Below, piece by piece: positions 5,354-20,000 of a DNA stretch of 20,000 nucleotides. The translations under genes were made by a program, and so were the position numbers. Numbering within the stretch: position 1 is the stretch's first letter; each line of letters opens with the position of its first letter. The notes beneath the pieces are model-generated. The model saw only the letters and a list, made by a program, of their open reading frames with translations, was not told the DNA's origin and made no database searches. The DNA comes from an uncultured virus (IMG/VR IMGVR_UViG_3300032291_000723) (lineage: Duplodnaviria; Heunggongvirae; Uroviricota; Caudoviricetes): the IMG/VR virus record IMGVR_UViG_3300032291_000723; one strand, 5' to 3'.

Positions 5354-5390
5354 TCCTATTTATGGCGCATTGCTCCCAGAAAGGGTAATA

Positions 5391-8300
5391 ATGTTTGATT
5401 TTGCACAAGGCTTTCCAAGCCAACCTTCGCTGCCTACTTCCGGGCCGCTGAACTACCAAGCCGAAAAGTCAATCCAAGTTCGTGGATTTGGCGAGATGGG
5501 GTGGAACCCAGTAAACATGGTTGGCGGTATGCTCAACCAAGTAGTCGGTGATGATTATGTTCGCGTTCTTGATGCCTCTGGCCTACGCGATGGAATTAAC
5601 TGGACCCATGGTGAACTTCGCAAGGTAGCGGATAACCGTGAGTATGGAAATCTTGAATACTTCATTAATACCCTTAACGGTGGTAAGCAAAACGATGCAG
5701 CAGTTGGCTTGGGATGGGCCTTAGAATCCTCCCAAGCCATGCTGCTTCGTCAGATTCTAGGTAATAAGCCACTAGAGCCAGTGATGTTTGCTCCTAGTGA
5801 AATTACTCCAGAGATCATGGCCGCTGAAGAACAGGAACTAAAAGGACTATTATCGACTGATGGTGTCTCAGAAGAGAACCAGAAGCGAGTACAAGAAATT
5901 TCAAACAAGAAAGCTTATGTCGAATCAAAGACACAAGCTGACAAGAACCTAGGCTTTAACTGGTGGGATTGGTATAAGCAAACCAATGTGTTTAATGCTG
6001 CTTCCACCTTGGGAGTCAATGTTCTTGGTGATAAGGATATTATTGATACACTTACTGAGTATGATCCAAACTTTAAGTCAAACGATTGGTTTGATAATTT
6101 TGCTGCTGATCCAATTGTTAAGCAGGGTTTACTAGAAAACGGGATCACTGCAGATATTGTAGCTGAGTCACCAAATGCTGACCATGCTTTTATGCGTATT
6201 AGCCATATAATGTATGAGTCCAATACCCAAAAGAGAATGGGTACCTATAAGCCAACTAATTATGACTTTGTAAAGAACATGGGTTCAGGCTTAGTTAGTT
6301 TTATGGTGGATACCCCAACAGGTGCTACTATTATAACAGGAGCGGCTGTTACTACTGCAGCGTCAATTTTTAGCCCTGCTAACTTTGCTGCTGTAGGAGC
6401 CACTGCTTTAGGTGAAGCTGCTGTACTGGGAGAAAGCGCTGTTGCCACAAGCAGCACCATGACCTTCCTTAATGGAGCAAAGACACTAGGCGAAACTCTC
6501 TATAAGCTCCCACTTGGTATGGCTCCTCAGTGGATGGAAGGTACTACCCTTTTATCAATGACTGCAGCTAACATAGCTTCCGGTGCTATTCAAGGAACAA
6601 TCGGTTCTTACAATCAACAAGCCAATGAGATTTCCTTTGGTGCTGCTACCATGTATGTCAATCCCTCTGTTCGTAGAGAGATGGATTATGGTGAGGTAGC
6701 AATAGAAGCACTGTATTCCGGTGTGATGATGGGTGGTCTATTTGGTTTGGGTGGTGGTCTTTTACGCTCTGTAAAAGGCATGACTGATAACGGACTAAAG
6801 GGACTAATCATTGATCCAGTAACAGGCAAGCGCAATAGACTAGACCGTAGCTTTACTTTCCAAGATACGCCACTAGGTAATACACTCCAGATGCTTCATA
6901 TCAAGGACTACGAAAGAAGTCTCATTGACCTGAAGCCAGTTGATGTTGTGCGTAATGAAGCCATTATTGAGAAGACTGATCCCACTCCAGATCGCCTTGC
7001 TGCCGAGACAGAAGGCTACGCTGATAGAGCCGAGGCCAGAGAAGCGCTTAAGAATCCCGAGGCAGCAGAGGCTACCCCAGAGGATGTGGGCACTCGTAAG
7101 TATGAATCCGAAACAACAGAACAATATATTAATCGTGTGGCCCCAAGCCGCACTATCCGTAACCTACCTGAGCTGGTGACTGAGGTTGCCAGAAGAACAC
7201 AGGTAGAAGGTGGGCGTATGATTTCTTCCACAGAAGAGTATCATCAAATGACCCCACAGGATCAAGCAAGAACGCTGATCCGCACACAGGCTGTTCTTGA
7301 AGCGGCTAAGAGGGCCGAAGAGAAGGCTGTGGGTCTACCCAAGGAACGAGAGCGTGTCTTTGAGCAGTTAGAAGCTTCCCGCAAAGAAGCCTTACGCCGC
7401 ATTGGCAAGACTCTTACTCCAATTGAATTCAAGAGACTGAAGGCAGAACTTAAGGGCGATAAGCCCAAAGTAAAGGGCAGTCTGCCTGAGCTGCTTACTG
7501 TAGCCAATGACAAAGCAAAGCCAATCGCAGAACGAAAGGCTAATGCTGAAGAAGCCGCAGGACAAATCCTAGAGACAGCCCGTGCAGTTATTAAGAATCC
7601 TGATAAGGCTAAGGTAATCAAGTCAAAGGTTCCACAAGAAATTCTTGACAAGGTTGATGCTGTTGTTGTAGAAGAAGCTCTCACTGGTAGAGTCTCAGCA
7701 GAAACAGCAGAGGAAGTTAAGAGAAGTCTTTTAGCAGCCGAAGAACCTTTTACCTCTAGCCTTACCAAGCGTATTGAGCGAGCAGTAAAAGTCAATAGAC
7801 TCTCTCCTGATCGCGTCGCTAGAATCAATGCAATCAAAGAAGACCACACTCGTTTTGTGTCTCTAGTTAAGGGAAACAAGATGCGAGCACTGGCGCTGTA
7901 CAACCACATCCACGAAGGCGTAGTTACTGGTGTACTTACTGCAGAAGATCGTGTTCTTATCTTAGCTTCCGTATCACACCTTAACTTTGATCTTAAGGGT
8001 TTTGCGATGGAGTATGCATATAAGAACATGGACGATGTTAATGTTGCAGGTGAATACAATGCCAAAACAAGAGTACTCACACTAAACACTAAGTCTACAC
8101 CATCCAATAGAGCACATACAGTTCTCCATGAGATTGGACATGCTCTCTTCTCAAACGACATGCGTGGTGAAGTATATCTTGAGAATCTCAAGCTGTACAA
8201 CAGCATGCGCGAAGGTACTCCTCTTTCCAGTAAGGGTATTCAATTAATTGATCCTCTTACAGAAAACCTAGGCAAGTACCATCTTCAGAATGTTGAAGAG

Positions 8301-11300
8301 TCATTTGTTCAATTGTTCTCCAATGTAGTACTGGCAGAGACAGCACAGGTAATGACACCTGTGGAATCCACAATGGTCCGTAAGACTCTTGCTTTCATTG
8401 AGAAGGCAATCCTTAATGCAACCATTGCTCTGGATGAATCCAAGTATTACGAAAGAGCCAACGCTGTAATTAAGGCACTGACTGAAGTTGACAACAAGGT
8501 CATTCGCCAGAGCGTATCTGTGTCTAGCCTTCTCCGCGCTATTGCAAAGGCAGAAGAAGCAAGACCAAAGAATGTTGCTCAGTTTAACTATGAGATTGCA
8601 AAGAGTCTGGGTGCTCGGCATCCAGAAGTTGATAAGGCTGTAATTAGAGAAACTTTTACTGATGCTGAATATAAGATGTTGTTCAAGCAGGTAAACGATC
8701 CTACCTCACTAGCAGCTTTTGCTATTACCCGAGAAAGCGGTAAGCCAATCGTTGATGAAGCAGGACGCTTCACTGTACATGCTCCTAAGTTCTTTGAGGC
8801 TTACTCAGAGTACAAGAAGGCGCAGTACAACTCAGCTGCAACCCGCGTTGCATACATGCTACGATCAATGTCTTACAAGCTTCTAACTGGTATGACAAAA
8901 GAAGAACGAGAGAACTTCTTTACTTATGAAATGTTTGATATTAATGCTAAGCAAGAAAAGGGATCACCTTATGAGAAGTCTTTAAATGACAATCTATCGG
9001 CTACCTATGAGGACAACCACCTTGCCAGCATGAATCTTAATGGTGGTAACTATGCTACCGACTACCTAATGACTACAGCTGAATCCTTTGTGGAACTGCT
9101 GCAAGAAGATGGTATGAGTGATATTGCTCCATCGGCTATGACACTATCAGCCGCAGCGCGTGAAGCTCTTATCAGCCGCATTCAGGAAGATCCATATCTA
9201 TCAAAGCCAATCATGGAACAACTCCGTGAGCATTTTGATAAGGCTGGTCTTACAAAGTATTATCAGCGCGCCTTTGATACAATGCAGAAGAATCTAATCC
9301 TTCGCATGTATGAAGAAGGTGTGTTCAGCATGAATGACCTAAAGCTTGTCTGGGATACGCCAGAGTTCAAGCAGTACTTTGGGAATAGTAAGGTAGTGGA
9401 TAAAGATGGTAATCCATTGATTATGTATCATGGTACTGCTGCTAATAATGGATTTGTAATTTTTAGAACAAAAGACGGTGATTTTGGGTTATTTGGTAAG
9501 GGTGGTTATTTCACTAGTAATCCTAAAATTGCTAGTGAATATGCCGGAGTAAGGAATGGAGCAGCTAGAAGAGGCTATGAAGAACCGGGTTCTGTATATC
9601 CTGTTTACTTAAGCATTCAAAATCCTCTGGATATGGATGCTAAAGTAGTACTTATAGGCGAAAGAACAGATGCTACTTTTATTCCTGCATTAAAAAAGTT
9701 TAAACCAAATGAATCACAAAATGAAACTGTAAAACTCTATTTTGATTTAGCTACAGAAGAAGGTAGAGCTCGTTTAGAAGAGTACAATGCAATAGTTGAA
9801 TCTGCTCAAGAATATTTAAAAAATCGTACAGAATCAGAAGTAACTAACGAAGAGTTCTTTAGGTATATATTAGATGCATTTGAGCATTACATTGAAGATG
9901 GTTCTGAATTTGTACATGAGTTAACAGATGATATTTTAAGAGCCACAAGTCATGACGGAATTACTCATATGGGTGGAGGCAGAGTTAGAGCCGATGGTCC
10001 ACGCCATCGGGTATACATTGCTTTTGAACCTGAGCAAATCAAGTCTATCTGGAATGATGGTACTTTTAGTCGCACTAATCCAGACATCCGTAGAAGCATT
10101 AATCCAGAAGTATCTAAGAAGCGTGAGATGATTGGTGTTCTTCAGAAATTTATTGGTGATAAGAATACTTTTAATGCCATGCCACTTGAGCATCTACTCC
10201 GTAATGTAATGGGTTTAGAAGAAACTCTAGTTGTCAAGTATATGAACCTAGGCAAGTCTAATCCTTTTAAGGCTCTTCAGGCTCTGCAGATTGCAGTTAG
10301 TAAAGACCTAATTGAACATGATGGTGCTAACTGGATTCTAAAGGTACAACAAGTTGTACCTAATGAACCTGTCCAACCTAAGATGCTTTCTCCTAAAAAG
10401 GTAGCTATGGTTGAAACAAAAGCTAAGCTTGTTACTGCAAAGACACTAGATGCGGAGCTTATGAGATATGTTGAAGATAATAAGAGTGTTTCAAAAGAAA
10501 TAACAAGCGAAGCTTTACAAGAAGCTTTAGTTAATTTCTTTGATATTAATTCTCCTGAAAGAGCAGCCTTGTTAGCCCAAGTTGAAGACGGCATGACAAG
10601 CCAACAACTTGGTTATTATATAAGACGCACTGTAAAGAATAATATAATTAAAGAACAACGCGATCAAAATAAAAACCAAGGTGATGTTAAAAACGCTGAG
10701 CAAACTTCTAAGAAAAATAAAAAAAGTGAAGCTATTGATACTACAAAGCAACGGCAGTTAAATGCTAATGCTTATAAAGTAATGCAGGATATTCATGATC
10801 TTTTCCTAAAGAAAACTGAATCTTCTTTGTTTACTGATACTCAGATGCAAACTTTGCGAGTACTTACTATAAATAGAACAGTAAAGCTTGCAGATGGTAA
10901 AGAAGAATTAGCACCACCAACATTAGACGAAGCAGCTAAGCTTCTTGGTCTTAGTGGTAAGTCTGGTGTTTCTGAGCGCATTAAGTCAATGCAAAAGCGT
11001 CTTCAAAAGAAATTAGGACTTACTGATGAAACTGCTAGTATGCTGTTTGATCCTAATACTAAACTCACCAATAAATTAAAAACAGAGGTGATGTCTAATA
11101 TTGAAGAAGCAATGGAAAAGCTTAATGCGGCTGAAAAAGAAAAGCCTGCAGCTGTTAAAAAAGAATCTAAGGTTGAGCTAGAGCCAGCACTACCTCCTGC
11201 AGAAAAGCTAGTAGAAACAGGAAATCAAATCTTAGACACAATAAACCAAACAGCCAAGATGGAACAGAATGCTGATCCAGTTGCTGTACCTAAGACTGAA

Positions 11301-14300
11301 GAACCCACAGGACACGCTACAGTAGATACTGGAGCTGAAGCACCAAAGGAAACTCCTAAGTTGGTACACACAGAACCAGTGGCCGATGCTGTTGCCAGTG
11401 GTGAAACCAACATGACTAAGACAGCGGTACAGCTGGATATCAAGAAGTCATTCTCAATGAAGGGTGTATTCACCCAAGCATCGGATGCTCTTGATCGTCT
11501 CTTCAATGCACTGGCAATTGAATATCCTGATGAGGTCGTTAGCCTTAAGACGGTTAAGGATCAGCATGCCTTTGTAGTTAAGCTACTGAAGGAAAAGGGA
11601 TATGACTCTGTTATTGATGAGCGTGGTAATGTTGTTCCTCTCAAGGAACCCAAGGTAATTGGTAAGACCAAGAAGCGAATCTCCAAGGAAGTTGCGGAGA
11701 AGCAGCAAGATCCTACCGTTGTTACTAAGGACGAAACAACATTCTCTACCGAAGACGGAGTTCCTGTGGCTACTACAGAGACTGTGGTGGAAACACCCAA
11801 GGCTCCTGTGGGACCAGTTGAAACTCCTGCTGGAGATCGTACTGTTGTTCCTACTCCTACTAAGACTGTGAGTGATGTTGCAAAGCTACCTGAAGCAGAG
11901 ACTTTAGAGCGTAAGGTAAACGAAGATCCAAAGCTACTCCGTAATAACGGTATGGATCGTAGTTTCCTAAAGCTCTTTACTAAGGCTTATTGGAAGTCCA
12001 AAGTTGAAGCCAGTGCCAATGATCGTGCTATTGCTAAGATGGCCGAGGAATCTAATGGCGGCGCTAATGCAGCCAATACTATGATGGCAAGAGCTTTCTT
12101 CAGTGGTACCAATTCAGTTAGTCACTCAATCACTGAGAAGTTTAAGACTGCATGGGGTGACTTTGTTCAGGTCAATCAGTTCATTGCTGAAGCAAATAAA
12201 AGAATGTTTGGCGAAGATATCATGGAACGCTTCTGGAAGAAGGTCGATGAGATTAACGCCGTAGATAGAATTAGACCAAAGGCTGCTGAAGGTCCAGCAG
12301 GAATTAAACCTTTGACATATAGAGAAGTTCTTGACAAGGCTGCTGAGGCCATGAACGAAGAAGGCAAACCAGCCTTTGTTCGTCCATTGCTTCCAGATGA
12401 GGTTAAGTTTGTCAAGGCCGATGAAGCTGGAAATGTTCGTCTATCCGGTAAGAACAAGCAGACCCGTGCCATTATTGATGCGGCTCTGACTGAAGCTGAA
12501 AAGGTAGAACCACCTAAAGTTGAAAGGGTATTAGATGCCGAAGGAAAGGTAGTACCAGAAGATACAACCCCAGCAAAGCCTGAGGAACCTACTCCACCTA
12601 CAACCGAAGATCAAATGATTGACGCTGCGGTAGATGGTAGCGAATCAGCAACCTCCAGACCATGGAGACTAAATAACTTTGTTGGGCATCTGTTTGGTGG
12701 CGACAACACTGCTAATGCTACATGGTGGCGTAAGCAGATGGCTAAGCTTGCCAATGCAACCCAGAGTTCATCACAGCTTGGAAACACAATCCGAAGCTTT
12801 AATGATTCAATTGCATTTATTTCCCGATGGGCTGACGATACCCGAGCACAGACAGGACATGTCGTGGGTGTAGGCAAGACTCCTTTCAAGACCATGTTGC
12901 AAATCAAGATGGACGAAGGAAGAGTCATTACCCGAATCCTACGAGCATACTCTGACTTTGATACCACCCTAAGAGGTGCTAACAAGCGAGCTGTGCAATC
13001 CTATATCTACGACTGTTTGCGTAAGGGTGAGCAACCAAACAAAGCTGAGATGGTCAAGCTAGGTGTTGGTGTGCATAATGCTGAAGCAGCAGTAAAGAAG
13101 GCGGGTTACTTACTGGAAATCTCCAGAGCAATCAATGACAAGATCCTCTACATGGAAAATACCACAGGTAGACTGGTCACCACTGATAAGCACGGCATGC
13201 CTCTTGATCCCAAGAAGTATGCCCCTGTTCAGTTTGATCACGAAGCTCTGATGCGTATTGCACCCGGAGAGCACTCAAAGATTATTGATGCTATGGTGAT
13301 TGCCCGTACTGCAACTAAGTTAAACGATCCACGCCTTGACAAAAACACAATGATTGTCATGGGTTGGATTGATGTTAAGTATAATAAAGAAACTGGTGGA
13401 TACGAGTTCTTCTCTAAGGAACGCCAACTAAAGCATTCCGAAGGCGCCAATATGTTCGGTAATGATACCCTAGCCAAGCTGCAAGTCAGCAAGATTGCCA
13501 AAGAAGGCACAGGCGGTGACAAGGGTATTCTTAAGAACCTACTGCGTAAGGGAGATCCAAATAAATATTTCATCCTTGAATCAGATACAGAGTACACTGT
13601 ATACCGTCTGCCTGAGGTTCTTGAAGACCTAGGCAATGCCGACAAGGCAAAGTATACAGAAGCTGTAAAGGGTAACACTGCTCATTACACCATTGATTGG
13701 CGTGAGCGTCTTGGTAACAAGAACCTGATTCAGCGAGAGATGGAAGAGATGTTTGCCTACAAGACCAAGAAGGCTCCTTATACGGATGACAGCTATGGTC
13801 TTGTTCGATCCATGTTTAAGATTGATGAGAATGGTCGAAGTGGTATTACAGTACCCGGCCTTACTCCCGAAGAGATGTTATCTGACCCAATGCTGGCCAA
13901 GCTATTGAGAACCAATCTGGCTGAAGCATACTTCCACTGGGTAAAGGGAAGATACTTTGATTTGAGCTTCCAACAGGAACTAGACAGAGTAATGGGAACC
14001 AAAGGCATCACTTGGGATAAGGTTACTAGCAGAGTTGCTAAAAGAGCACAAGATGATATTTCTAAGATTGCAGTAGATAGTGGGTGGACCAGTAAGCAAC
14101 TAGATAGTGCACATCAAGATATCAACAATGGTATCAAGAGACTGCAGGAAGAGTTCCGAGCTGGTGCTGAAACCCTACCCTTCTTTGCAAACAAGGGACC
14201 ACTAGGTTCAAGAGCTGCTAATGCTGCTATTCGATTCAAGTTCTCTGTTGGCTATGGTGTATCACAATTTACAGAAATTCTTCAGGAACTTGTTAAGCAC

Positions 14301-15983
14301 TCCCCAGAGTTCTATACAATGCCAAAGAATATCTTTGAAGCACTGCGCTATGTGGTTGGTGATTATAGAATCTCCAAGAACAAGATGCTTATGTCTGAAC
14401 TGGGTGATATGACCTTTGTGCTTGAAGCTTTCAAGACAGACCTATCAAACCGATTTATGGGTGAGACTGGTTATGGTACACTCACTACAGATTCCAGAAT
14501 GGGCACTCGTTTTGCAAAGGTTGCTCAGAATATCCGTAATGCCAATGGACTAGGGGAAACTCTGGTGACCATTGGTGAGGGTGCTGCCGAAGGTATGCAA
14601 GCCCTAGGCTCACTGTCGGCTCAGACACAAGCTGTGCGTGTACTGGGTAAGGTGAGAATGCAACGGTCTATCTGGCATTACTTTGAAAACGGTAGTGTGG
14701 AAAAGCTAATCACTAGACTAGAAGACCCAACGGTTGCTGCTGAGCTGGCTGAGCTTAACAAGGCTGCTAGCAAGGATCAGGCCCAACAGGTTAAGCTGTG
14801 GAAGCGCTTTGCTGGTGTTGCCAGAGAGAGTGGCTTCGGTATGGATCAGCATGATGCCATGATGTTCCTCAAGTATGGCTTCGGTGATGCAGAGACTGTC
14901 AAGGCCTTTAAGTGGGCCATGACCAAAGTCAAGCATGACAAGGGCCGTGTCAATATGAACCTCCTTTGGGATCTGGCTGATCAGGTTGCCCGAGAAGGCT
15001 CTAAGGAAGTAGACCCAGAGGTTCTGGGTAATGCCTTATCCAATTATCAATTTATGTTAGAGGACAGAATTACCAAGGAAGTAGCAAGCGAAGTCCGTGG
15101 GTTAAACCGACAGACAGACCTTGAATCCAGAAGCGCTCTTGGGCGTCTATGGTATGCCTTGAGTTCCTTTACTCGTTCATATCAGGATAATGTGATTATG
15201 GGTTACGGTAGCAAGAGTACCATCAAGTACCTTGCTGGCGGTATCTTCCTGTACATGGCGGTGGATGCCCTAACCAGTTACCTTAAGGAATATCTAGCAG
15301 GGCGTGACCACAAGGATATCCTACAGGAACTGGAAGATCGTCCAAGTGAGTTCATGATTCGTGGTGCTGCAAGAACCCCATTCATGGGAACATGGAATGG
15401 ATTCTTGGAAGCTGGTCTGGCTGGAGCTTCTGCTCTCAACGGTGGAACCTATAAGTACTACGGGATTCCCGGACTACCCGCAGGTGCCTCTGCTGGCGAA
15501 GGTGCCCTATCAGATATCTACAATAACACCAAGACATTGGTGGGTAGTGATTCTGACATGGGTAAGAGACTTAAGGCAGCTAGTGGTCTATTGGGTGTTT
15601 CAGATATAGTTAATCGTAGTCAGGCTGCTATTCCCATCCGTGTCCTACAGGACATGGGGGCCATAGAACAACAGTCTGCCGTAGGAACTTATTTGGATCT
15701 TATCCACAGAAAGCCATATCCCTACATGAAGCAGAATGCTAGTGCTGGTACTTATCAACCAATGGACCCCAACGATTATCAGCCTACTCCAAGGAACTTT
15801 GCCAAGGAGGCTTCGCAATACGAGGCTGCTAAGCAGATGACCAAGCAGTTCCCTCTACCACCAGAGAGAGTGGTAGTACCTAAGAGAACCGCAACATCTA
15901 GGGGTACGACCAGTCAGATGTTTAATTCGACTAGTCCCAATACAGGAGTGTCAGGTGAACTAGGGGATCTCCTAGATCAATGA
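5391..15983 (+). CDS. ~3530-aa polyvalent internal virion/ejection protein (metallopeptidase + ART-like + sigma-like domains)
   Basis: ATG at 5391 follows GAAAGGG (5379-5385) and is preferred over TTG at 5370. There are Gly/Ala-rich hydrophobic segments near the N-terminus (~6290-6770) and C-terminus (~15140-15290), as in podovirus DNA-ejection proteins. Internal domains are listed separately. Confidence 0.85.
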   Translation: MFDFAQGFPSQPSLPTSGPLNYQAEKSIQVRGFGEMGWNPVNMVGGMLNQVVGDDYVRVLDASGLRDGINWTHGELRKVADNREYGNLEYFINTLNGGKQNDAAVGLGWALESSQAMLLRQILGNKPLEPVMFAPSEITPEIMAAEEQELKGLLSTDGVSEENQKRVQEISNKKAYVESKTQADKNLGFNWWDWYKQTNVFNAASTLGVNVLGDKDIIDTLTEYDPNFKSNDWFDNFAADPIVKQGLLENGITADIVAESPNADHAFMRISHIMYESNTQKRMGTYKPTNYDFVKNMGSGLVSFMVDTPTGATIITGAAVTTAASIFSPANFAAVGATALGEAAVLGESAVATSSTMTFLNGAKTLGETLYKLPLGMAPQWMEGTTLLSMTAANIASGAIQGTIGSYNQQANEISFGAATMYVNPSVRREMDYGEVAIEALYSGVMMGGLFGLGGGLLRSVKGMTDNGLKGLIIDPVTGKRNRLDRSFTFQDTPLGNTLQMLHIKDYERSLIDLKPVDVVRNEAIIEKTDPTPDRLAAETEGYADRAEAREALKNPEAAEATPEDVGTRKYESETTEQYINRVAPSRTIRNLPELVTEVARRTQVEGGRMISSTEEYHQMTPQDQARTLIRTQAVLEAAKRAEEKAVGLPKERERVFEQLEASRKEALRRIGKTLTPIEFKRLKAELKGDKPKVKGSLPELLTVANDKAKPIAERKANAEEAAGQILETARAVIKNPDKAKVIKSKVPQEILDKVDAVVVEEALTGRVSAETAEEVKRSLLAAEEPFTSSLTKRIERAVKVNRLSPDRVARINAIKEDHTRFVSLVKGNKMRALALYNHIHEGVVTGVLTAEDRVLILASVSHLNFDLKGFAMEYAYKNMDDVNVAGEYNAKTRVLTLNTKSTPSNRAHTVLHEIGHALFSNDMRGEVYLENLKLYNSMREGTPLSSKGIQLIDPLTENLGKYHLQNVEESFVQLFSNVVLAETAQVMTPVESTMVRKTLAFIEKAILNATIALDESKYYERANAVIKALTEVDNKVIRQSVSVSSLLRAIAKAEEARPKNVAQFNYEIAKSLGARHPEVDKAVIRETFTDAEYKMLFKQVNDPTSLAAFAITRESGKPIVDEAGRFTVHAPKFFEAYSEYKKAQYNSAATRVAYMLRSMSYKLLTGMTKEERENFFTYEMFDINAKQEKGSPYEKSLNDNLSATYEDNHLASMNLNGGNYATDYLMTTAESFVELLQEDGMSDIAPSAMTLSAAAREALISRIQEDPYLSKPIMEQLREHFDKAGLTKYYQRAFDTMQKNLILRMYEEGVFSMNDLKLVWDTPEFKQYFGNSKVVDKDGNPLIMYHGTAANNGFVIFRTKDGDFGLFGKGGYFTSNPKIASEYAGVRNGAARRGYEEPGSVYPVYLSIQNPLDMDAKVVLIGERTDATFIPALKKFKPNESQNETVKLYFDLATEEGRARLEEYNAIVESAQEYLKNRTESEVTNEEFFRYILDAFEHYIEDGSEFVHELTDDILRATSHDGITHMGGGRVRADGPRHRVYIAFEPEQIKSIWNDGTFSRTNPDIRRSINPEVSKKREMIGVLQKFIGDKNTFNAMPLEHLLRNVMGLEETLVVKYMNLGKSNPFKALQALQIAVSKDLIEHDGANWILKVQQVVPNEPVQPKMLSPKKVAMVETKAKLVTAKTLDAELMRYVEDNKSVSKEITSEALQEALVNFFDINSPERAALLAQVEDGMTSQQLGYYIRRTVKNNIIKEQRDQNKNQGDVKNAEQTSKKNKKSEAIDTTKQRQLNANAYKVMQDIHDLFLKKTESSLFTDTQMQTLRVLTINRTVKLADGKEELAPPTLDEAAKLLGLSGKSGVSERIKSMQKRLQKKLGLTDETASMLFDPNTKLTNKLKTEVMSNIEEAMEKLNAAEKEKPAAVKKESKVELEPALPPAEKLVETGNQILDTINQTAKMEQNADPVAVPKTEEPTGHATVDTGAEAPKETPKLVHTEPVADAVASGETNMTKTAVQLDIKKSFSMKGVFTQASDALDRLFNALAIEYPDEVVSLKTVKDQHAFVVKLLKEKGYDSVIDERGNVVPLKEPKVIGKTKKRISKEVAEKQQDPTVVTKDETTFSTEDGVPVATTETVVETPKAPVGPVETPAGDRTVVPTPTKTVSDVAKLPEAETLERKVNEDPKLLRNNGMDRSFLKLFTKAYWKSKVEASANDRAIAKMAEESNGGANAANTMMARAFFSGTNSVSHSITEKFKTAWGDFVQVNQFIAEANKRMFGEDIMERFWKKVDEINAVDRIRPKAAEGPAGIKPLTYREVLDKAAEAMNEEGKPAFVRPLLPDEVKFVKADEAGNVRLSGKNKQTRAIIDAALTEAEKVEPPKVERVLDAEGKVVPEDTTPAKPEEPTPPTTEDQMIDAAVDGSESATSRPWRLNNFVGHLFGGDNTANATWWRKQMAKLANATQSSSQLGNTIRSFNDSIAFISRWADDTRAQTGHVVGVGKTPFKTMLQIKMDEGRVITRILRAYSDFDTTLRGANKRAVQSYIYDCLRKGEQPNKAEMVKLGVGVHNAEAAVKKAGYLLEISRAINDKILYMENTTGRLVTTDKHGMPLDPKKYAPVQFDHEALMRIAPGEHSKIIDAMVIARTATKLNDPRLDKNTMIVMGWIDVKYNKETGGYEFFSKERQLKHSEGANMFGNDTLAKLQVSKIAKEGTGGDKGILKNLLRKGDPNKYFILESDTEYTVYRLPEVLEDLGNADKAKYTEAVKGNTAHYTIDWRERLGNKNLIQREMEEMFAYKTKKAPYTDDSYGLVRSMFKIDENGRSGITVPGLTPEEMLSDPMLAKLLRTNLAEAYFHWVKGRYFDLSFQQELDRVMGTKGITWDKVTSRVAKRAQDDISKIAVDSGWTSKQLDSAHQDINNGIKRLQEEFRAGAETLPFFANKGPLGSRAANAAIRFKFSVGYGVSQFTEILQELVKHSPEFYTMPKNIFEALRYVVGDYRISKNKMLMSELGDMTFVLEAFKTDLSNRFMGETGYGTLTTDSRMGTRFAKVAQNIRNANGLGETLVTIGEGAAEGMQALGSLSAQTQAVRVLGKVRMQRSIWHYFENGSVEKLITRLEDPTVAAELAELNKAASKDQAQQVKLWKRFAGVARESGFGMDQHDAMMFLKYGFGDAETVKAFKWAMTKVKHDKGRVNMNLLWDLADQVAREGSKEVDPEVLGNALSNYQFMLEDRITKEVASEVRGLNRQTDLESRSALGRLWYALSSFTRSYQDNVIMGYGSKSTIKYLAGGIFLYMAVDALTSYLKEYLAGRDHKDILQELEDRPSEFMIRGAARTPFMGTWNGFLEAGLAGASALNGGTYKYYGIPGLPAGASAGEGALSDIYNNTKTLVGSDSDMGKRLKAASGLLGVSDIVNRSQAAIPIRVLQDMGAIEQQSAVGTYLDLIHRKPYPYMKQNASAGTYQPMDPNDYQPTPRNFAKEASQYEAAKQMTKQFPLPPERVVVPKRTATSRGTTSQMFNSTSPNTGVSGELGDLLDQ
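7950..8420 (+). other. Zincin metallopeptidase domain (MPTase-like) within the giant protein
   Basis: VAGEYNAKTRVLTLN strands, then HTVLHEIGHALF (HExxH at 8127-8141), then NVEESFVQLF (from 8289) providing a likely third Zn ligand. Boundaries are approximate. Confidence 0.8.
9357..10097 (+). other. ADP-ribosyltransferase-like domain (ART-PolyVal type) within the giant protein
   Basis: Characteristic motif series: FKQYFGNSKVVDKDGNPLIMYHGT (YHGT 9426-9437), FGKGGYFTSNPKIASEYA, VYPVYLSIQNPLD, HDGI, YIAFEPEQIKS, NDGTFSRTNPDIRRS. Confidence 0.85.
10461..11020 (+). other. Sigma-70-family (ECF-sized) sigma factor-like module within the giant protein
   Basis: Region 2-like SEALQEALVNFF and LGYYIRRTVKNNIIKEQR, then a polar linker, then region 4-like LFTDTQMQTLRV and TLDEAAKLLGLSGKSGVSERIKSMQKRLQKKL. 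Order and total span (~185 aa) match ECF sigma factors. Confidence 0.6.
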
Positions 15984-16001
15984 CATGCCGAATAGATGGG
16001 G

Positions 16002-16199
16002 CTATAGATATAGTACTATAGATATACCTAGGTTAACCTAGGGGAGTAGCTAAGCTACTCTCCTAGGCACCTAGGAAATTCCTATAGGTTTTAGTTTAGG
16101 TTTTATTACTATGGATATAGCTTAGTCCCCTAGGTATCTCTCTAGTTAAAATCACAATAAATTATCCAACCTAGGTCCCATGGAAACATGGACCTAGGT
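16002..16199. repeat. Cluster of CCTAGG palindromes and inverted repeats
   Basis: CCTAGG occurs at 16027, 16037, 16062, 16070, 16129, 16170 and 16193. There is a perfect 16-bp palindrome at 16027-16042, hairpins at 16037-16067 and 16169-16199, and a direct repeat CTATAGATATA at 16002 and 16016. Confidence 0.9.
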
Positions 16200-16345
16200 A
16201 TTATGCGTATCACTGGTCAACCTCCCCCCGGTCTTGCCGGGTAGGTCCCTTGTCGATTTCGGTAGTTGCTCCCTCCCCGCTCACTGCCGGGGGAGCTCCC
16301 TTAGCTACGCCTGTTCCTGCTGGCCCTACGATGCCTCAGGAACGC

Positions 16346-16424
16346 TTCCTAAGAATCCAATGGGTCCAAGGGGCACCAAGGAGAGCCAAGGCCCCATAAG
16401 CGATTCCTAAGAAATCGACTTAGG
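16346..16424. repeat. 10-bp-phased CCAAGG repeats flanked by TTCCTAAGAA direct repeats
   Basis: CCAAGG starts at 16366, 16376 and 16386, with variant CCAATGG at 16357. TTCCTAAGAA occurs at 16346 and 16404. Confidence 0.8.
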
Positions 16425-16484
16425 GGTAAAAAATTAATAAAAGATTATCCCCCGTAGGTACCTTACCCTTGCCCCCCGCTACCC

Positions 16485-16566
16485 CCGGAGGGTCCGGTAA
16501 CTCGGGACATGGTTATCGGACCTAGCGCGGCGCCCCAAGGTTATCGGACTTTGGCGCCGGAGGGTC
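16485..16566. repeat. Nested direct repeats CCGGAGGGTC x2 and GGTTATCGGAC x2
   Basis: CCGGAGGGTC at 16485 and 16557; GGTTATCGGAC at 16511 and 16539. Confidence 0.8.
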
Positions 16567-16592
16567 TGAACATTCCCGGCTATGCGCGTCTA
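16567..16592 (+). promoter_or_regulatory. Candidate ECF-type promoter
   Basis: TGAACAT (16567-16573) and CGTCTA (16587-16592) resemble GAACTT-N16-TCTNA (sigmaE/AlgU type), with a 15-nt spacer here. A +1 near 16597-16598 would fall at the start of the hairpin-boxA element. Confidence 0.35.
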
Positions 16593-16597
16593 CCAGT

Positions 16598-16624
16598 GGC
16601 GGAGCGACCCGCCCTCTTTAACAA
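16598..16624 (+). promoter_or_regulatory. Hairpin followed by a boxA-like sequence (rrn-type Nus antitermination site)
   Basis: GGCGG-agcgac-CCGCC hairpin (16598-16613), immediately followed by CTCTTTAACAA (16614-16624). E. coli rrn boxA is TGCTCTTTAACA; the G is replaced by C here. Confidence 0.5.
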
Positions 16625-16635
16625 GTCAAACGTTT

Positions 16636-17155
16636 GCGTTTCCCGCGTCCCCCATGGGGAAAGTGGAAACTGGTTCTAGCGAATCATCGAATGCCCGATC
16701 CCAAGTACGCTAGGTTTCCATGGGGAAGCCAACGTAGCAAGCCGGACCCCTGAAAGGGGGTCGCGGGAAGTACGCCTAGCCTAACGGGAACGAAACCGGA
16801 ACGATGAAACGAGTGATTCGCGCAAGCGAATCGAACCGTAATACCTGCCACCCCTTGGATGGGGTAAGGTAGTGCGCGTATCCCGGATGACTAACGGGAA
16901 CGCATGGACGGGAACGGTAGCACGTTCCACCCATGAAACAATAATTAATTCCGATACCCTGCTTTCTTTCCGCAGGGTATCGGCTAGGACTCTCCGCAAT
17001 CGTTAGGGCCAGCCAATGCCACGGACGCCATGAGTTATCGGTGCGACCAGTATAGGGTCTATATCCGATAAGTACCGCAGTACCGTGGCCCATATAAATG
17101 GCCCCTGAACTATGCGGAGGGTTCTAGCCGATCCGTCCACCGTGGACAATCGGAA
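16636..17155 (+). ncRNA. Putative large structured RNA or leader of the early transcript (family not recognised)
   Basis: Nearly continuous nested helices, GAAA (16752-16755) and GCAA (16822-16825) tetraloop hairpins, and a 20-bp helix 16979-16998/17113-17132 whose only non-Watson-Crick pairs are G-U on the + strand. No convincing ORF in the interval. Confidence 0.7.
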
Positions 17156-17178
17156 CTCAAGTTTACGGAGACTGAATC

Positions 17179-17595
17179 ATGTCTATCGACCGTGCTACTT
17201 TCGTTCGCGTTGCTTCCGCCTGCAACTTGTCCGCTGCTTTCTCGGACACTCTCGCTAGCGGCAAGGGTCGGACGGCTACGGGGAAGGTGGATTGCCGAAA
17301 GTTTGCTGCCCTGATGGAGAAGGTGGCATTTATGTACGGCAAGGATTGTGCGTCCAAGTACTTCATGCTGCCTATCCTGCTTGCCAAGGCAGGTATCCCG
17401 GCGGATGCTTTCCGGTGGCGTGGCAATGCCACGGAGGGTATCGAAGCCCATCCGGCGGCTGAAGTGTTCCAGACTCTTTGCACGGAGTACCTGCAGGGTC
17501 TGTATCCCTACGAAACTTGGGAGACGGCATCGTCTGCTCCGCAGGTTCGCCGCAAGGATATCCCGTCCGATATCCTCGCCACGCTCGATATCTAA
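17179..17595 (+). CDS. Hypothetical early protein, 138 aa
   Basis: GGAG at 17167-17170 upstream of the ATG. First gene after the structured leader. Confidence 0.85.
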   Translation: MSIDRATFVRVASACNLSAAFSDTLASGKGRTATGKVDCRKFAALMEKVAFMYGKDCASKYFMLPILLAKAGIPADAFRWRGNATEGIEAHPAAEVFQTLCTEYLQGLYPYETWETASSAPQVRRKDIPSDILATLDI

Positions 17596-17601
17596 TCGGG
17601 C

Positions 17602-17666
17602 CGTCTATCCCCGCAGGGGGATGGACGCTAGGGTATCCCCTGCGGGGGATGCTCTAGCGTCTATCC
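17602..17666 (+). other. Overlapping intergenic inverted repeats (possible RNase III site or RNA switch)
   Basis: An 11-bp hairpin (17602-17627) overlaps a 22-bp hairpin (17619-17666). All deviations from Watson-Crick pairing are G-U on the + strand. Confidence 0.7.
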
Positions 17667-17693
17667 GCTCGCCATCAATCCGAAAGAACCCCA

Positions 17694-18014
17694 ATGCAGG
17701 CTTTCCAGAAGAACGTGCTTGAGATGTATGTCCGCCGTGCAATGCAGACTGGAACTATGGCAGACGCTGCTATTGCTGCGGACTATCTCTGCAAGGTATC
17801 AGGCAGTTCCTATGCGAACTGCATGGCTGCTCTTTGCAAGGCATACGGTATCCGCCATGCGGATCGTATCTGCAAGGATCGTCCGGGCATGTATGTATCC
17901 AAAGATCCTGCACGGGAATTGGCTGCAGGATGTATCGTCAAGTTTGACAAGGAAACTATCTCCGTGAAGCGTATCCCGGAGGTTGTTCCCGCTGCCATTC
18001 TGATGGCCATCTAA
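17694..18014 (+). CDS. Hypothetical early protein, 106 aa
   Basis: ORF fills the gap between neighbours. The RBS is weak (GAAAG), and its stop codon runs into the next gene's RBS (CTAACCGGAGG). Confidence 0.8.
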   Translation: MQAFQKNVLEMYVRRAMQTGTMADAAIAADYLCKVSGSSYANCMAALCKAYGIRHADRICKDRPGMYVSKDPARELAAGCIVKFDKETISVKRIPEVVPAAILMAI

Positions 18015-18027
18015 CCGGAGGCAAACA

Positions 18028-18285
18028 ATGACTACGCACACTTACCGTGGCAAGGTTCTCGTCTGCAAGTTCAATCGGACGCATAGGGATACCCGCAACA
18101 ATGAGGTGGGAACTATGTGGTTTGAAACTTTGCAGGGTTACTTGGTGGCCGATGCTAATGCGCCTACCTTTGATGACGCATTCATTGATGACATTGCCTA
18201 TGAGCATGTCAAGGATTACTTCCACCAGTTTGCGGACAATGCTACCCCGGAACAATATGTGTTGGTTGGTTCCGAGGAGAACTAA
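18028..18285 (+). CDS. Hypothetical early protein, 85 aa, acidic C-terminal half
   Basis: GGAGG at 18017-18021 upstream of the ATG. Confidence 0.85.
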   Translation: MTTHTYRGKVLVCKFNRTHRDTRNNEVGTMWFETLQGYLVADANAPTFDDAFIDDIAYEHVKDYFHQFADNATPEQYVLVGSEEN

Positions 18286-18290
18286 ACTTT

Positions 18291-18417
18291 GGTATGCCAT
18301 AGGGAAACCTATGGTATGCCTTTCCAACTAGGGGTGCGCGGCTAGACCATTCCACCCCGCCCAGTGTCGTTGTGTTACAACCCAACGGGATAGCGTAGGG
18401 AAACCTATGCTATTCCC
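18291..18417 (+). other. Structured intergenic element bounded by twin TAGG-GAAA-CCTA hairpins
   Basis: 13-bp stems at 18291-18320 and 18387-18416, each with a GAAA loop and two G-U pairs. Two shorter stems lie between them (18331-18358 and 18368-18387). Confidence 0.75.
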
Positions 18418-18438
18418 ATTAGTCCGAATGAATCCCAT

Positions 18439-18471
18439 ATCCGGCTATGCCGGGAAAGGTATGAGACAATG
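18439..18471 (+). repeat. Start-associated 33-bp repeat, copy 1
   Basis: ATCCGGCTATGCCGGGAAAGGTATGAGACAATG, ending in the start codon at 18469; 31/33 identical to copy 2. Confidence 0.9.
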
Positions 18472-18789
18472 AAGGTTTCCGAATCTGTTTGTGTTGGTTC
18501 CGATGCTGTTGCCAATGCTTTCTTTGCGGGGGATACGCTTGTTCTGTATACCGCGCATGATGGTAAGACAACGGTTCGTATCTCTGGCAATGAGGGTTTC
18601 ATGGCGGGTAATCAAGTTACCTTTGATACCCGGAATGCCGCAATCAAGTTTGTGAAGGATGCTGCTCATGGTTTGCCAATGCAGTATAACAAGCAAACTA
18701 ATACATACAATCGCAGGGAACTTACCCGTGTTCGCCTTTGCTTCATGGATGGATGGGCCACCATGAATACCAACGGAGAAGGTTTCTAA
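18469..18789 (+). CDS. Hypothetical early protein, 106 aa
   Basis: The ATG lies in the repeated translation-start cassette, and the stop abuts copy 2 of the cassette. Confidence 0.85.
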   Translation: MKVSESVCVGSDAVANAFFAGDTLVLYTAHDGKTTVRISGNEGFMAGNQVTFDTRNAAIKFVKDAAHGLPMQYNKQTNTYNRRELTRVRLCFMDGWATMNTNGEGF

Positions 18790-18821
18790 TCCGGCTATGC
18801 CGAGAAAGGTTTGAGACAATG
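18789..18821 (+). repeat. Start-associated 33-bp repeat, copy 2
   Basis: ATCCGGCTATGCCGAGAAAGGTTTGAGACAATG, ending in the ATG at 18819. Confidence 0.9.
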
Positions 18822-19726: not shown

Positions 19727-19999
19727 ATGCTGCGAGTCATCACTCTCTCTGATCTGAATGGTAAGAACCCCTTCAATCTGTGCATCCTTGGTGAGAATAA
19801 GAAGGATGATACTGATATTGTGGAGGCCATTAGTTATATCCTCATGCGAGACTTCTATTCGGATGGTGGTAACTTTTACATTCACATTGAACACGCAAGG
19901 CATAGTGACTTTGTAGTGATTGTTACTACGGATGATTACATTCAACCTGTTGCTACTTATATGGCACGGGTTCAGACTGTCTGTATGTATGGTGCCTAA
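19727..19999 (+). CDS. Hypothetical protein, 90 aa
   Basis: CTAACTGGAGACAACAATG start context. Confidence 0.8.
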   Translation: MLRVITLSDLNGKNPFNLCILGENKKDDTDIVEAISYILMRDFYSDGGNFYIHIEHARHSDFVVIVTTDDYIQPVATYMARVQTVCMYGA

Positions 20000-20000
20000 T

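Follow-up and report, generated by a model that had tools for sequence, protein, structure and literature searches.

Comparative sequence evidence for a previously uncatalogued structured RNA in an exchangeable slot preceding the early genes of a T7-like podovirus

What occupies the 1.2-kb gene-free gap that lies, in an uncultured phage, between the gene for a 3,537-residue protein on its 5′ side and the small early ORFs that begin at position 17179 on its 3′ side? The stretch analysed here (the window) comprises 20,000 nucleotides of a 55,106-base virus record (G000; 82% complete), and a preliminary description of its letters had placed in this gap a folded RNA outside the recognised families. 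That proposal is supported by double compensatory changes in relatives, by the Rfam covariance models, none of which matched, and by pieces of the region in the RNA libraries of three studies. Alignment with relatives indicates that the structured RNA is real, had not been catalogued before and sits in a swappable early slot. The element spans approximately positions 16614-16945 of the + strand, is about 330 nt long and precedes the first early gene.

The virus is a T7-like podovirus; inspection of the ORF list by eye shows a T7-like gene order, and the best identity of its terminase to named phages is 36-37%. A T7-type RNA polymerase (RNAP) gene is found in all four near-complete relatives searched, with its start an estimated 7-9 kb downstream of the element (from coordinates and frame lengths), whereas G000 lacks that part of the genome. 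The product of the giant gene upstream of the gap (5370-15983) is probably an internal virion protein; it has an ART-PolyVal domain and weakly matches an M78 peptidase, and the corresponding frames in relatives are 2,950 to 4,337 residues long. The promoter-like motif at its 3′ end is retained in relatives and has counterparts at G000 1522 and 10286, three in the genome, and its position suggests that the genome ends lie just downstream. The T7 genome has promoters at its ends, gene 0.3, which is ocr, and the RNase III site R0.3. By the T7 gene order, the genome ends are presumed to fall inside the gap, which would put the element near the left, first-entering end. The conserved DNA motif at 16411 probably represents a genome-end or origin signal. 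The sequence GAAATCGAC forms an inverted pair at 16260 (−) and 16411 (+), with some 150 bases between the copies; it is conserved in relatives and is a candidate genome-end or origin site. The GTCCG(A/G)TAAC repeats are regarded as DNA-level sites, one to four copies being present, in orientations that differ between records, in each of the 14 records that reach that far. The last 270 bases of the window (19731-20000) are absent from the genome contig.

Table 1. Features in and around the gene-free gap (window coordinates; P, pair probability; MFE, minimum free energy fold)
Feature	Position	Strand	Remarks
Phage-RNAP-promoter-like motif	15988..16010	+	Directly after the last late gene (giant gene)
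Conserved DNA motif	16411..16450	.	5′ of the repeats, then C-runs; present in syntenic records
Three GTCCG(A/G)TAAC repeats	16492..16549	+, −, −	At 16492 (+), 16512-21 (−) and 16540-49 (−); left border of the slot
BoxB-like hairpin GGCGG/CCGCC	16598..16613	+	P 0.99; identical in L001
BoxA-like single-stranded motif, CTCTTTAACA	16613..16623	+	5′ edge of the type-A RNA
H1, local 5′ hairpin with small internal loop	16638..16670	+	P 0.7-0.97
Domain 2: closing helix GGTTC/GAACC, long arm, optional GCAA hairpin	16672..16837	+	MFE
Arm-closing helix 16684-89/16802-07	16684..16807	+	Changes in X18, X17 and X2
Hairpin at three-way junction	16713..16730	+	16717/16726 compensated in L001 (U-A to A-U), broken in X2
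Apical arm: CGTA/TACG, internal loop, GACCCCT-GAAA-GGGGGTC	16733..16774	+	X2 double changes 16735/16772 (U-A to C-G) and 16745/16762 (G-C to A-U)
Repeat copy 1	16781..16792	+	3′ strand of helix with 16696-16702; paired in MFE and ensemble of 16614-16945
Optional GNRA hairpin	16815..16832	+	Deleted in L001; U-A to U-G in X2
H3 of the conserved 3′ core	16842..16871	+	Double changes 16850/16865 (L001, L258, X2) and 16853/16862 (X2)
H4, loop GAUG-N-CUAA	16876..16903	+	Holds repeat copy 2; double change 16876/16903 (L258)
Repeat copy 2	16891..16902	+	Inside H4
H5, loop (G/C)UAGCA(A)	16904..16934	+	Double changes 16905/16933 (L258) and 16914/16925 (X2)
Junction before ORF1, invariant UUCUUUC loop, 20-bp arm	16949..17155	+	z −7.8
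ORF1, first early gene, 138 aa	17179..17595	+	No assigned family

Relatives were gathered with ORF1, which retrieved one viral contig (L001), and with the terminase, which retrieved 51 loci. Whole records were searched for 42 of the latter, and the end of the giant gene was present in 17 of the 42; 16 regions were compared, 12 of them with the whole interval, so that the window included there are 13 complete records. All 13 share one order: giant gene, end motifs, GTCCG(A/G)TAAC repeats, a slot of 85-519 nt, a junction with the UUCUUUC loop, and ORF1. The RNA of the window, designated type A, fills four of the 13 slots in three distinct sequences; type B is found in three records and one partial record (L256, L257, L259, L253) and type E in one (L252). 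The five remaining records hold four other slot sequences (C in L249/L250, D in L251, F in L255, and G) which bear no BLAST likeness past the first 55 nt. Further uncatalogued folded RNAs of 305-519 nt are predicted in the B, E, C, D and F slots, which are without Rfam matches. The flanks of L258 (type A), L256 (type B) and L255 (type F) are 98-99% identical, yet these three records carry three slot types. The window and L258, both of type A, have upstream flanks that are 57% identical and 3′ cores that are 76% identical (mean of shuffled sequences 51%, maximum 62%). Differing folded sequences between flanks of 98-99% identity therefore indicate that the slot is an exchangeable cassette; the RNA looks accessory because one record has a slot of only 85 nt.

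How far the slot types are related to one another is less certain. Covariation is seen in 20 of 80 pairs of the type-B RNAs, whose 3′ end consists of three hairpins; a UAGCAA-type loop caps the last of them. Model R1, built from the four type-A records, recovered just these four across 47 records; its matches to the B and E slots, at the 3′ ends, are weak (E 0.12-1.3), as are those of model R2 to the window (E 0.19 and 2.3). Since these cross-matches are weak, a common family of A with B/E is treated as a lead only. The region had no BLAST match among GenBank phages or plasmids, and scanning metagenomes for ORF1 or for a degenerate hairpin pattern gave nothing. Pattern scans of viral sequence gave four matches in one case, all judged to be chance because the hairpin scanned for is deleted in L001; in others 34 of 35 and one of four were chance, and none of 120 reported stretches had a significant profile match. 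A single match in a genome pattern scan, in coding-like sequence, was apparently also due to chance.

Folding energy separates the element from its shuffled counterparts on both strands (z −5.2 on the + strand, −3.5 on the − strand), and the DNA fold likewise scores −3.5. Its 300-nt segment ranks fifth among 65 scanned in the genome (z −4.7, 12 shuffles each), and in a genome so rich in hairpins folding energy alone is not decisive. A strongly folding segment (z −7.6) is also found where the probable DNA polymerase gene ends (G000:C1:7912-8211).

The preliminary description had drawn a multibranch fold with GNRA tetraloops, and all the complementary segments that it named exist in the sequence at the places given. 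Its local hairpins stand. The GACCCCT-GAAA hairpin (pair probability 0.97) and those built on TACCT/ACCCC (0.8-0.98) and CATGG/GGAACG (0.83-0.98) show compensatory changes in relatives, while the GATTCGC-GCAA hairpin (1.0) is cleanly deleted in L001. The long-range helices of its 5′ part are mostly wrong and are replaced by another fold: the closing helix 16636-47/16762-75 has a pair probability of 0.00-0.02, the inner helices CCCCAT/ATGGGG, GGAAAC/GTTTCC and CTAGCG/CGCTAG reach at most 0.05, and forcing all four costs 7 kcal/mol. L001 and/or sequencing run X2 have changes that break each of the three inner helices. Three changes fall in the proposed closing helix, all to G-U and none breaking the pairing; two of the three are double compensations within other helices. 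Of the two GNRA hairpins, whose loops might make tertiary contacts with receptors, L001 lacks one and L254/L258 lack both.

In the revised fold, covariation among the aligned alleles supports a long arm, a local hairpin on its 5′ side and three hairpins on its 3′ side (Table 1). Among the variants listed, at least 12 distinct pairs carry double compensatory changes, against two broken pairs, both in X2, of which the second is 16881/16899. Four of the six pairs of the arm-closing helix are changed on both sides in run X18, by our reading of rows with loose ends and indels, and the 3′ side of this helix changes alike in X17 and X2. The five one-sided changes among these variants are all of the G-U type on the + strand, with pairing kept or improved, and never produce A-C in the supported fold, which favours a + strand RNA. 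With the three full-length alleles alone, 3 of 29 pairs are double-changed, a number reached by 23 of 500 shuffles; the covariation statistics are weak because only three distinct full-length alleles exist.

The individual parts differ in how well they are retained. A hairpin matching H1 but with a different inner stem is present in L001, and folding of L258 recovers the outer stem only. The closing helix of Domain 2 changes from G-C to G-U in L001 and X2, and the pair probabilities of the Domain 2 arm drop to about 0.06 when folding starts at 16560. In L258 this domain is much shorter and includes a second H4-like hairpin. The UG-N-CUA of the H4 loop is complementary to the UAGCA of the H5 loop in all three alleles, the pairing bases being invariant and so without covariation; the H5 loop motif recurs in type-B RNAs.

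A 12-nt sequence, CTAACGGGAACG, had been reported to occur twice, and this repetition is genuine, given that 9 of 2000 shuffles contain a 12-nt repeat. Its GGGAACG portion is base-paired in both copies, and the folding models place CTAACGGGAACG mostly in pairs, as the predicted 3′ strand of a duplicated helix; the second H4-like hairpin of L258 fits a duplicated helical module. The accompanying suggestion that purine-rich linkers act as protein-binding sponge sites is unsupported because the repeat is paired and, among the 12 GGA motifs of the element, the only fully unpaired one is not conserved, reading GGG or GGU in other alleles. Sponges of the CsrB/RsmZ type have multiple conserved GGA motifs (CsrA motifs) in hairpin loops. 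The element resembles them in its repeated GGA-containing segments but differs in that its GGA motifs lie mostly in stems, with a single, non-conserved one in a loop; a sponge of this type was therefore rejected.

No known family accounts for the RNA. Rfam 15, which includes ROOL, GOLLD, OLE, 6S, group I and II introns and ribozymes, gave no match in the window at gathering score, none inside the element at E ≤ 5 and none over gathering score in four homologous loci, and ARAGORN found no tRNA or tmRNA gene in the window. Several candidates seen by eye (group II intron domain 5, a group I core, twister, a tmRNA tag and the 11-nt tetraloop receptor) were dropped, being without Rfam support. The pistol model (RF02679) has no match in G000 and is positive in one of five genomes: a pistol ribozyme of 38.9 bits, over the Rfam gathering score, lies between early genes of L251 (2224-2295, − strand; G012:C1:32923-32994). 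A pistol look-alike was noticed by eye in L248. No ATG frame is common to the three type-A alleles (the window, L263 and L258), and X17, X18 and X2 carry changes in the ATG at 16804. The element is undescribed in the literature searched; it was not found in the accessible part of the supplement to PMC10690425, and a partial listing among the 10,006 candidates of that paper is possible, their alignments lying outside the part covered.

Some part of the stretch is contained in 20 sequencing runs, four of which are recorded as RNA; some runs that share only few of its words were left out of account. Three RNA runs from three studies, chosen for containing the stretch, each gave one contig within 16604-16919; these are single contigs of depth 2-3 without strand or ends, and may be DNA. 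We take them as presence in RNA libraries and not as proof of transcription. For the flanks within 15600-18600, contigs came from DNA run X2 and none from the three RNA runs, a difference which was not counted as evidence.

The surroundings of the element recall a ribosomal RNA (rrn) leader. The boxA-like motif agrees at 10 of 11 positions with GYTCTTTAANA, the consensus in the accessible part of PMC5725501, the first G being missing; this consensus is gamma-proteobacterial and may not be that of the host. Agreement is 9 of 11 in L001, L254 and L258 (one more change), the 10-mer has a single exact copy in G000, and the motif is absent at the equivalent place in the nine non-A slots. A hairpin lies 5′ of it, in the boxB-then-boxA order described for rrn leaders (PMC8632103, in part), but this weighs little because hairpins are common in the region, and L254/L258 have a different hairpin there. 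The junction motif is present in all 13 complete records, its loop is invariant in the nine aligned, and changes of the G-U type occur in L001 and X2; the 20-bp arm is a candidate RNase III-type release site. Portions of PMC8632103 and PMC5725501 describe a boxB-boxA-boxC leader with a NusA/B/E/G-SuhB complex and Nus-assisted folding of rRNA. The likeness extends to a hairpin, a boxA-like motif, a large folded untranslated RNA and, beside it, a candidate RNase III helix. The element differs in being phage-borne, non-ribosomal and confined to 4 of 13 records, in its boxA without the first G, and in that no boxC was identified. No sigma-70-like promoter site was found against 5.5 expected, no terminator was found at the 3′ end of the element, and neither a promoter nor a terminator for a separate unit was detected. 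What we take to be an ECF-like motif lies at about 16565-16593, its spacing one base short of the presumed consensus.

The reading that we favour, tentatively and at somewhat less than an even chance, is that of a stable RNA which the host polymerase makes early, which is cut from a leader and which serves in trans as a host-protein decoy. The host RNAP would transcribe the element among the first products of infection, and the hairpin and boxA would load host NusB/NusE as on rRNA operons, helping the RNA to fold and protecting the untranslated leader. Cleavage of RNase III type at the long helices of the junction might then release the stable RNA and free the ORF1 message. In trans, the free RNA would be an accessory host-interference factor, most likely a host-protein decoy that binds through the conserved loops GAUG-N-CUAA and UAGCA and the duplicated helix, and phage lineages would swap such RNAs as they swap early host-takeover genes. 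An accessory RNA acting in trans is favoured by the rrn-like layout (boxA, folded RNA, processing helix) taken together with exchange at the slot and near-absence in one record.

The main alternative, which we consider possible though rather unlikely, is a read-through leader that acts in cis in the manner of nut, put or EAR: boxA and the folded RNA would remain attached to the host polymerase during elongation, protect the leader of about 600 untranslated nucleotides against Rho, and assist transcription, and DNA entry, in reaching the phage RNAP gene. Such a role would suit the location 5′ of an operon, the hairpin-then-boxA order, the missing terminator and the remoteness of the RNAP gene; in lambdoid phages, antitermination modules are also swapped at one locus. 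It fits poorly with the absence of boxA from the nine non-A slots, with the relative that has just 85 nt, with a modular structure of 330 nt that exceeds the needs of boxA, and with the lack of sequence likeness to antiterminator RNAs in Rfam. Distinctly unlikely is a joint module in which the ORF1 protein binds the leader, either for autoregulation or as an N-like antiterminator with its RNA site. ORF1 belongs to one family in all eight A, B or E records and in none of the five C, D, F or G records (profile comparison with the other ORF1s, probability 1.5%), and a conserved basic motif is found in its low-confidence C-terminal tail; simple linkage explains the association, and at finer scale the two are discordant, L254 having the most similar RNA and the least similar ORF1 (28%) and the B and E records 38-48%. 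ORF1 itself has no match over cut-off in Pfam, PHROG or NCBIfam and 12 relatives at E ≤ 0.001; its structural model (pLDDT 82) gave a best Z of 4.7, no Foldseek match at E ≤ 0.001 and atlas matches under 0.9.

A DNA-level feature, such as an origin, packaging site or cruciform, or a neutral spacer, rich in hairpins, close to the genome end, with the RNA reads as by-products, seems to us quite improbable. It would accord with the many strongly folding segments of the genome, the DNA fold score and the DNA-type repeats and end motifs just upstream, but the one-sided changes described above run to G-U on the + strand and never to A-C among the variants listed, the fold is nested and long-range and not a simple palindrome, and the core is conserved well above its flanks. 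Least probable of all is a self-cleaving ribozyme of a new class that processes the early transcript: the pistol ribozyme in the early region of one relative implies that the group uses ribozymes, whereas the element matches no family at E ≤ 5, pistol is lacking from G000, and the element is larger and more modular than the small ribozymes.

Other systems offer partial parallels to the trans-acting RNA that we favour and to its cis-acting rival. HK022 put and Bacillus EAR bring about protein-independent read-through of downstream terminators. Like them, the element is a structured RNA at the start of a long operon; it differs from these two RNAs, which PMC8632103 names, in having no sequence or Rfam match to them and in being accessory and swappable. 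In the early region of T7/phiKMV phages, according to the accessible parts of PMC10914365 and PMC3604761 on LUZ19, the genome position is the same, hairpins lie between early genes, host promoters precede the first gene, and 5′UTR-derived RNAs are reported for LUZ19. Here, by comparison, a covarying RNA of 330 nt is exchanged between close relatives, a sigma-70 promoter was not found and the RNAP gene is much further downstream. The large phage ncRNAs ROOL and GOLLD (PMC12286853, in part) are likewise phage-encoded and multi-domain, with loop-loop pairing possible, whereas the element is much shorter, has no Rfam match and lies in a window without tRNA genes.

The current view is that infection by T7-like phages begins with small proteins. 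Were the favoured reading true, swappable large folded RNAs at that position would be early host-interaction factors of a new class, and a single locus would yield several new RNA motifs whose natural alleles could serve structure-function work; were the cis-acting one true, a lytic T7-like phage would have borrowed rRNA-style antitermination for a long early operon. A bolder conjecture, which we put forward as speculative and on balance doubtful, is that in this freshwater T7-like group the position of the first-expressed gene is an RNA-gene hot spot, at which a minimum of five to seven different folded RNAs (among which A, B and E are probably one diverged family) are swapped like host-takeover genes and serve as RNA-only anti-defence factors or host-protein decoys, type A possibly associating head-to-tail through its H4 and H5 loops.

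Further structures were noticed downstream of the slot. The UUCUUUC loop of the junction (16963-16971) is conserved more strongly than any RNA of the slot, and its sequence is similar to the beginning of boxA. A rod of about 115 nt (16999-17112), seen only in the window and L001, is inserted in the long arm of the junction; by eye, the L001 changes mostly keep its pairing, and it has a TTATCGG/CCGATAA stem which is the motif of the upstream DNA repeats. Between ORF1 and ORF2 (17600-17670), two copies flank a central segment that is able to pair with either of them, a design shared with the junction before ORF1; this arrangement is kept in several relatives and is possibly a processing signal. 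Repeated hairpins, of the GAAA-loop type and of the form CCGGC-TAT-GCCGG, precede early genes at 18291-18320, 18387-18416, 18441-18453 and 18791-18803.
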